A stretch of 53,502 nt of DNA, the filler included, from Sluysia triapertura (Eukaryota), in NCBI GenBank assembly GCA_046118255.1. It is 4 parts of 4 records of this genome, joined end to end, with 100 filler letters (N's around TTAATTAATTAA, not from the genome) between each part and the next. Parts side by side here need not be neighbours in the genome. Positions count along the whole stretch, not along the records: positions 40,338 to 53,502 come from JBJNIA010055551.1; 3 more parts are not named here. The stretch is one strand, 5' to 3'. Position numbers and translations under genes: made by a program. Within the stretch, counting starts at the first letter, position 1, and every line of letters begins with the position of its first letter. Shown here one piece after another: positions 51,900-52,620 of this stretch. The notes below the pieces were generated by a model. It ran no database searches. It was not told the origin of the DNA and saw only the letters and a list, made by a program, of their open reading frames with translations.

Positions 51900-52620
51900 T
51901 AAATGCGCTGAATCTAATTCATGAGGAAAATACATGTGAAACGATGATACACCATTTACTTTCATTTACAATTTTCAAAAAGATAGTTAATGCAAGAAAA
52001 CACTGTTACGAAAACAAGTCAATTGATGCGTTTTCTTCATCACTGTTTCTATAATATTGAATTTGAATCTAGTGCAAATTGTTTTAGATTTCTTATTTTG
52101 TTTATTAACGATGATTATAAAGAGACTCATGGCTATGATAATGATGATTTTCTTAATGATAATGTTAAAGATGATTAAGGAGATGGTGGCGTTAGTGTTA
52201 ATAGTAATCACGATAGTGATTACGAGTGTGATTTTGATAATGATATAAAAGATAAGCACGTTCATGATCATGAATTAAATAGCAAAGAGATTTTATGGAC
52301 GTGTTGTATCTGTAAAACAAAAACTATAGTTTCTACAACATGCAAAAAGTGTGAAAACACTAAATGTAGATCCTATGAAACTCCTAATGAGTTAAGAATA
52401 ATGAAATGTGAATCTAGGTTTAAAAACAATAGTGAACCTTGGTTATTTAAGACTTGTACTTTCAAAATGAGTTTGGTTATGAGCACGGTGAGAAGGAGGA
52501 AGTTTATGATTCGTGCGCAGGAAATGCTACTTATACAACAAATTATATGCAGGTTGAACCGAATGTTCGCAGAAACCTTTCAACTTGCTATAGATCGTGT
52601 TATATCGCGCATTATATGCA
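51900..52620 (+). pseudogene. Intronless MDM2/MDM4-like E3 ligase
   Basis: Domain order: SWIB-like (TCETMIHHLLSFTIFKKI), Asp-rich tract, RanBP2-type ZnF (WTCCICK..CKKC at 52296), RING remnant (SEPWLF..C..HG..C..KC..G*TEC..P; cf. EPCVIC..HG..CFTC..PCPVCRQP). Confidence 0.65.

Follow-up and report, generated by a model that had tools for sequence, protein, structure and literature searches.

The members of the MDM family are defined, in the available part of PMC6372010, by a C2H2C4 RING together with a p53-binding domain. Even for genuine SWIB domains of invertebrates, binding to p53 is often weak or absent, according to the accessible text of PMC10303687. Mavericks, in turn, carry acidic, CxxC-containing 'Oncoid' genes and genes for Bcl2 and IAP proteins, as given in the available portion of PMC8502044. 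For a stretch of eukaryotic DNA at 51900-52620, an initial annotation had proposed a miniature, intronless and element-encoded MDM2-like gene of ~240 codons with the domain order SWIB-acidic-ZnF-RING, acting as a p53 antagonist. The analysis presented here identified instead a decayed orphan zinc-finger gene, which is probably Maverick cargo and for which the label "MDM2" is not earned.

The window, which is the whole stretch of DNA analysed, comprises 53,502 nucleotides of eukaryotic DNA from Sluysia triapertura with ~24% GC. Spacers of N at 11312-11411, 24014-24113 and 40238-40337 divide it into four contigs, and the stretch 51900-52620 is located on the last one, which is continuous from 40338 to the window end. 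The three plus-strand frames contain 6, 16 and 44 stops over 51900-52620 and none of them spans it, so that an intact gene of ~240 codons is not present at this site. Rather, the stretch is the 3' portion of a coding region of ~500 codons at 51140-52702 that has decayed and seems to lack introns. This region is built from three overlapping frames, A, B and C, and its coding is disrupted by stops and frameshifts. Frame A (51140-52054, plus strand) has 304 codons with four internal stops, at 51440, 51515, 51587 and 51650; its longest clean piece extends from stop to stop over 51653-52054, with an ATG at 51728. Frame B (51987-52634, plus strand) has one stop, at 52176, in 215 codons. Frame C (52451-52702, plus strand) is part of a C-terminal remnant at 52434-52702 (plus strand), which is split over frame B (to 52634) and frame C and shows no more than a faint RING-like spacing. 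Near 51500-51740, the true frame may be a different one, as suggested by the codon composition. A further open piece of 73 codons is located upstream in another frame (50928-51149, plus strand); it has no Pfam or PHROG match and may be part of the same decayed gene or of a neighbour.

The upstream frame had been regarded as a possible N-terminal extension fused to a compact gene. The two are indeed contiguous, and the supposed SWIB domain lies in the same frame (51653-52054). Since this supposed domain is the end of frame A and continues from the upstream ORF, the gene has ~500 codons and is not a miniature one. To obtain the proposed domain order, a frame change near 52050, a readthrough of the stop at 52176 and a second frame change after ~52440 are needed. 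The openness of frame A (51140-52051) was reached by none of 2000 dinucleotide shuffles, that of frame B (51987-52631) by one of 2000 and that of frame C, which is weaker by itself, by 54 of 2000, figures that are optimistic in that the intervals were selected for being open. The region is thus of coding origin and has decayed, and the present copy yields no full-length protein. The decay estimated from the stop counts is ~4-8%, a figure that hidden frameshifts could bias. Single-sequence AlphaFold models gave mean pLDDT values of 38.7 and 36.4. An alternative genetic code as the source of the stops was dropped, with the stops being mixed and an 813-codon ORF of the window using CAA and CAG normally. 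This ORF, at 17002-19443 (plus strand), is intact and without a Pfam match, and its product is basic, then acidic, then Ser/Thr-rich; it is probably a long host exon.

The several frame switches, together with acceptor-like sequences at ~51590 and ~52088, would also fit a spliced host gene that is still live, with the pieces as its exons and the stops and frame changes residing in its introns. However, by a simple rule, none of the five stops lies in a short, frame-keeping GT-AG intron; in addition, many diverged relatives exist, and neighbouring genes are broken within conserved domains. A live host gene is therefore considered very unlikely.

Many relatives of the stretch exist in one sequencing run, X1, which contains the stretch itself and may be the source sample. 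In this run, 6615 contigs align to its contig at 80% likeness, with 537 of them at an identity of 99% or more, 1221 at 95-99%, 1992 at 90-95% and 2865 under 90%. At nine listed sites in 51613-52507, 9-22 contigs differ with a summed depth of ~250-780, whereas the five long, nearly identical contigs that are listed have a depth of 7-19. The summed depth amounts to 353-359 in the bins of an integrase remnant located upstream (see below) and to 327 and 433 in those of the gene; it is lower, at 96-124, in two bins between them and, at 89, over 50874-51312. For AT-rich DNA compared at 80% likeness, none of these summed depths equals a copy number. One diverged contig aligns to both 52548-52683 and 52783-52910, so that this relative extends beyond the end of the gene. 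The codon positions were counted for the ten differences in 51613-52507 that are among the 41 of 1592 listed, leaving out 52153, a very deep low-complexity match. The third-position bias of the remainder (seven of nine differences, in one frame) was rejected as evidence, because so small a number does not suffice and some of the differences lie outside that frame.

In MDM2 and MDM4, a central acidic domain is followed by a C4 RanBP2-type finger, and both features were identified here. The acidic, low-complexity tract at 52110-52283 (plus strand) is located in frame B and has 19 of 58 residues as D or E, a content that ranks second among 3678 sliding stretches; it is an unspecific feature, and the stop at 52176 lies inside it. 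The finger follows at 52296-52352 (plus strand) with the pattern W-x-C-x2-C-x9-C-x2-C, which occurs nowhere else in the six frames of the window. With a frameshift-aware MDM-finger profile, it reached 27.0 bits, a score obtained by none of 797 window stretches and, in three settings each, by none of 664 null stretches and none of 300 codon shuffles. By tblastn, one Mdm finger was aligned to it with 45% identity over 20 residues (E 0.88), and this finger is the only part of the gene that can be aligned to Mdm proteins. Pfam missed the finger, and it was also absent from the top ten of a plain hmmsearch. The PDB matches for the finger were weak and PHD-finger-like (E 0.2-1.9), and the other PDB sequence searches likewise gave only weak matches, with no MDM2 chain among them.

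RanBP2/NZF fingers (PF00641) share with the finger of the window the W-x-C-x2-C ... C-x2-C arrangement with its four Cys residues, but differ in their x10 spacing and their Pfam match. The Thr-Phe dipeptide that binds ubiquitin is absent from the finger described here. The strict RanBP2 consensus pattern gave no match at 52296-52352, where the finger is one residue short and the consensus Asn is missing in this copy. One difference common to most of the related contigs is located within the finger and moves them towards this consensus, as it is given in the available part of PMC7154859. The zinc finger of the initial annotation thus stands as a RanBP2-like finger scoring above all nulls, though it is shorter than the consensus and escapes Pfam.

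For the two remaining domains the result was different. Pfam searches on the native frame pieces, at E values up to 1 or 10, and on two other frames read through stops identified no SWIB domain (PF02201), RanBP finger or RING, and scans with PHROGs and NCBIfam gave no relevant match. As controls, Pfam recognised both SWIB and RING in MDM2-like genes of compact size, including a frameshifted one, and a 63-residue piece of a broken Sec7 domain on the same contig (E 5.9e-8). Custom Mdm profiles were derived from a motif scan that yielded 12 metagenome and 9 viral loci; 13 proteins were used, among which were a vertebrate Mdm2 over its full length and several Mdm proteins of invertebrates. In a plain hmmsearch with these profiles, no plus-strand piece of the region was among the top ten for any domain. 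The score of the supposed SWIB domain (~51900-52050) was reached by 205 of 416, 122-154 of 370 and 11-15 of 76 nulls and by 84-149 of 300 codon shuffles, with a profile that is frameshift-aware but holds only 3-4 sequences; the pieces searched with Pfam did not cross the frameshift near 52050. With no PF02201 match and profile scores at chance in every test, a SWIB/p53-binding domain was not detected.

The frameshift-aware RING score was reached by 57 of 399 and, in further settings, by 3, 3 and 11 of 384 window stretches, and, with codon shuffles in three settings, by 7, 5 and 48 of 300. The whole-domain score is thus marginal (3/384; 5-7/300) and the local one not significant (57/399; 48/300). 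When an MDM2-type RING was artificially degraded (30 trials per level), the mean score was 55.7 (minimum 40.0) at 10%, 33.4 at 20%, 17.6 at 30% and 7.0 at 40%, compared to 6.4 in the window. The C2H2C4 ligand pattern had no match in six frames. A C-terminal C2H2C4 RING, as described for the family in the available part of PMC6372010, was accordingly not found by Pfam or pattern, and the score lies far below the decay controls. Near 52540-52575, weak peaks also arise with unrelated Maverick profiles, which points to composition. The RING at 52434-52702 is therefore at most a faint trace. Since SWIB is at chance and the RING faint and without the C2H2C4 set, the gene was not assigned to MDM2/MDM4: the acidic tract and the finger of the MDM2-like proposal were recovered, its SWIB and RING were not, and on the broken frame the frameshift-aware profiles back the finger alone.

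In its order, the locus resembles MDM2 and MDM4, with an acidic tract, then a C4 RanBP2-type finger and, C-terminally, what may be a RING-like trace, and this order may not be due to chance. It differs in the undetected SWIB domain, the lack of the C2H2C4 set, the shorter finger, ~250 extra N-terminal codons and its broken state. One explanation is that an intronless gene of the MDM2/MDM4 family was captured by a Maverick, diverged strongly while active, with SWIB eroded or lost and the RING divergent, then decayed, after having acted on p53 or the ubiquitin system. This explanation draws on the domain order with its short linker, on the marginal whole-domain RING score, on the shift of most related contigs towards the RanBP2 consensus (available part of PMC7154859), on compact intronless MDM2-like genes in other gene-dense contigs and on the host-like Sec7 cargo that the element seems to carry. 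Against it stand the chance-level SWIB scores (from the profile of 3-4 sequences), the non-significant local RING scores, the weak peaks of unrelated Maverick profiles, the ~250 codons ahead of the supposed SWIB, and the occurrence of RanBP2 fingers in many families; moreover, the RING score corresponds to 40% decay, whereas the stops imply 4-8%, and a RING at 10% decay scores 40-56. Such a captured gene is considered unlikely, and the descent from an Mdm gene, strongly diverged, is similarly doubtful. The proposed antagonism of p53 found no support: the SWIB domain that it requires was not detected, and the gene is broken in this copy; p53 is a highly improbable target of the encoded protein.

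Compact intronless MDM2-like genes of the proposed type do exist in gene-dense, AT-rich contigs. Two of them, L019:636-2078 and L015:501-1899 (both minus strand), contain an acidic tract, a C4 finger, a C2H2C4 RING and two SWIB-like repeats, of which in L019 one passes Pfam and the second was identified by alignment. Unlike the gene of the window, L019 passes Pfam for both SWIB and RING. The two are 86.8% identical over 1830 nt, with L015 being frameshifted, and are packed tightly among other ORFs on metagenome contigs of 35-36% GC. A tblastx comparison of both to the contig of the window showed no similarity at E<1, and no relative of L019 was found in viral contigs. As candidates for an MDM2 encoded by an element or a virus, they are preferable to the gene of the window. 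The ORF upstream of the MDM2-like gene in these contigs ends, by eye, in a SOCS/BC-box-like motif. C2H2C4 (MDM2-type) RINGs without SWIB were identified in L004:2311-3129, L013, L014 and L016, one of them in an IMG/VR viral contig, and this RING type is consequently not confined to Mdm proteins.

For the region itself, no homolog was identified in a word-seeded search with frame A read through (167-532 aa) or in longer proteins, in a full HMMER search among 1.84 billion representatives with the frame B piece alone as query, or in viral and metagenome contigs. The match to L001 is antisense and due to chance.

The contig contains decayed remnants of a Maverick/Polinton, all on the plus strand. 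The profiles used for their detection were derived from 45 loci of genome contigs, 40 of them with the motif in frame and their genes named by Pfam; 17 of the loci entered the integrase profile and 24 the ORF clusters. A total of 26 clusters were searched, 13 of them in a frameshift-aware manner. The C-terminal part of a packaging ATPase was identified at 40754-41125 (profile iE 1.3e-5; 54.8 bits compared to a null maximum of 18.0), with Pox_A32 as cluster representative. An rve integrase of the Maverick type is located at 44206-44484 (iE 1.4e-5 with the profile of 17 integrases and 5.3e-6 with the cluster; 29.0 bits compared to 16.2) and was not detected by Pfam, PDB or NCBIfam searches. An adenain-type protease follows at 45196-45369 (iE 0.0016; 30.7 bits compared to a null maximum of 18.1); its cluster representative matches Peptidase_C5 below the cut-off. 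The end of the conserved Maverick ORF preceding the protease was weakly matched at 45066-45158 (iE 0.017), and this ORF is probably the major capsid gene. The three genes characteristic of Mavericks, for integrase, packaging ATPase and protease, are thus all present as decayed remnants scoring above null. Since the integrase profile also matches a Gypsy-like integrase at 37041-37214 on another contig, the Maverick identity rests on the ATPase and the protease. The remnant of this Gypsy-like integrase extends over 37008-37844 (plus strand). Scans of viral contigs for the Maverick integrase motif found none, and the cluster of the protein-primed DNA polymerase B (PolB) had no match in the window; this gene may be situated ahead of the contig start or past the window end.

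Facing the protease remnant, a broken Sec7 (ARF-GEF) domain is located at 45396-45584 on the minus strand (Pfam Sec7 E 5.9e-8 and 1.4e-8, with PDB matches). It is multicopy, contains a QERER motif, which we take to be EFA6/PSD-like, and is accompanied by coding-like pieces up to ~46280. The Sec7 gene is likely host-derived and a possible cargo of the Maverick. Between the ATPase and integrase remnants, more decayed multicopy coding frames were observed at 41597-42701 (minus strand), one of them with a weak CCCH finger match below the cut-off (E 0.005).

The Maverick remnants and the broken Sec7 gene are located 5-11 kb upstream of the stretch. The initial annotation had called the gene element-encoded, and the Maverick ATPase, integrase and protease on the contig and the many relatives agree with this; no terminal repeat or other element boundary ties the gene to the element. 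A self-BLAST revealed no end-to-end terminal inverted repeat on the contig, which is truncated on both sides, at 40338 and at the end of the window. The motif AGTAGT marks the terminus of Mavericks, and it does not occur after 51793. Without such a boundary, and with ~5.5 kb of very AT-rich DNA holding a palindrome and a microsatellite between gene and protease, and an uneven depth along the contig, the gene could also belong, in decayed form, to a different repeat family or to a host gene family that has expanded, and just happen to lie near a Maverick remnant. However, integrase and gene are alike in decay, lack of introns and depth, and the 10-12 kb between the ATPase and the gene agree with the 15-25 kb that Mavericks usually measure, which renders a chance neighbourhood rather unlikely. 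The palindrome between the Maverick core remnants and the gene is imperfect and comprises 546 bp (47536-48081) with 72% arm identity. A small Maverick ORF match at 52666-52761 (iE 0.09, two near-identical sequences) was judged to be composition.

The best explanation is that the stretch represents the end of an accessory (cargo) gene, now dead, which belonged to a Maverick/Polinton that is multicopy and decayed, a reading to which we give about even confidence. The finger and the Maverick remnants are present on the contig, and the gene would have been part of the element. When intact, it would have encoded an orphan protein of ~500 residues with an unassigned N-terminal part, an acidic disordered tract, a RanBP2/NZF-like finger and a short Cys/His tail. 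This protein might, in our judgement with an equal chance of being otherwise, have served as a host-modulating adaptor binding host proteins via the acidic tract and the finger, and would then resemble those accessory proteins of adintoviruses and small DNA viruses that are acidic and contain paired CxxC motifs. The accessory genes of Mavericks and adintoviruses, as described in the available part of PMC8502044, are alike in being intronless orphan genes with ATPase, integrase and adenain on the contig and an acidic region by paired CxxC motifs. The gene of the window, whose place in the element is inferred, differs in its RanBP2-like finger and in the absence of LxCxE. Neither LxCxE nor CR1 had a match in the three plus-strand frames of 50900-52800, and since LxCxE is absent, the gene is by definition not an Oncoid.

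As it stands, the locus is an ordinary dead accessory gene beside a decayed Maverick. Its main value is in indicating a multicopy element that carries host-like genes as cargo. A more far-reaching reading, in which an animal Maverick family captured both a gene of the Mdm family, with an acidic tract, a RanBP2 finger and a divergent RING, and a Sec7 ARF-GEF gene to modulate host p53/ubiquitin and membrane traffic, with this locus as a dead copy, is quite unlikely. If other copies held a real SWIB and RING, they would represent a virus-like element using a captured host p53 regulator, a route of p53 control different from that of adenovirus E1B and papillomavirus E6, which the present evidence does not show. 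A literature search revealed no paper on MDM2 in connection with Maverick, Polinton or adintovirus, nor on viral MDM2.

Two further observations were made on repeats and Maverick genes. About 500 bp past the gene, a 42-bp unit is present twice at 53218-53299 and could be a subterminal repeat. In addition, prokaryote MAG assemblies were found to contain Maverick-type integrase, ATPase, protease and PolB genes (L024, L026, L028-L030, L032-L034, L038, L041, L046, L052-L056 and others), which are probably mis-binned viral or eukaryotic DNA.
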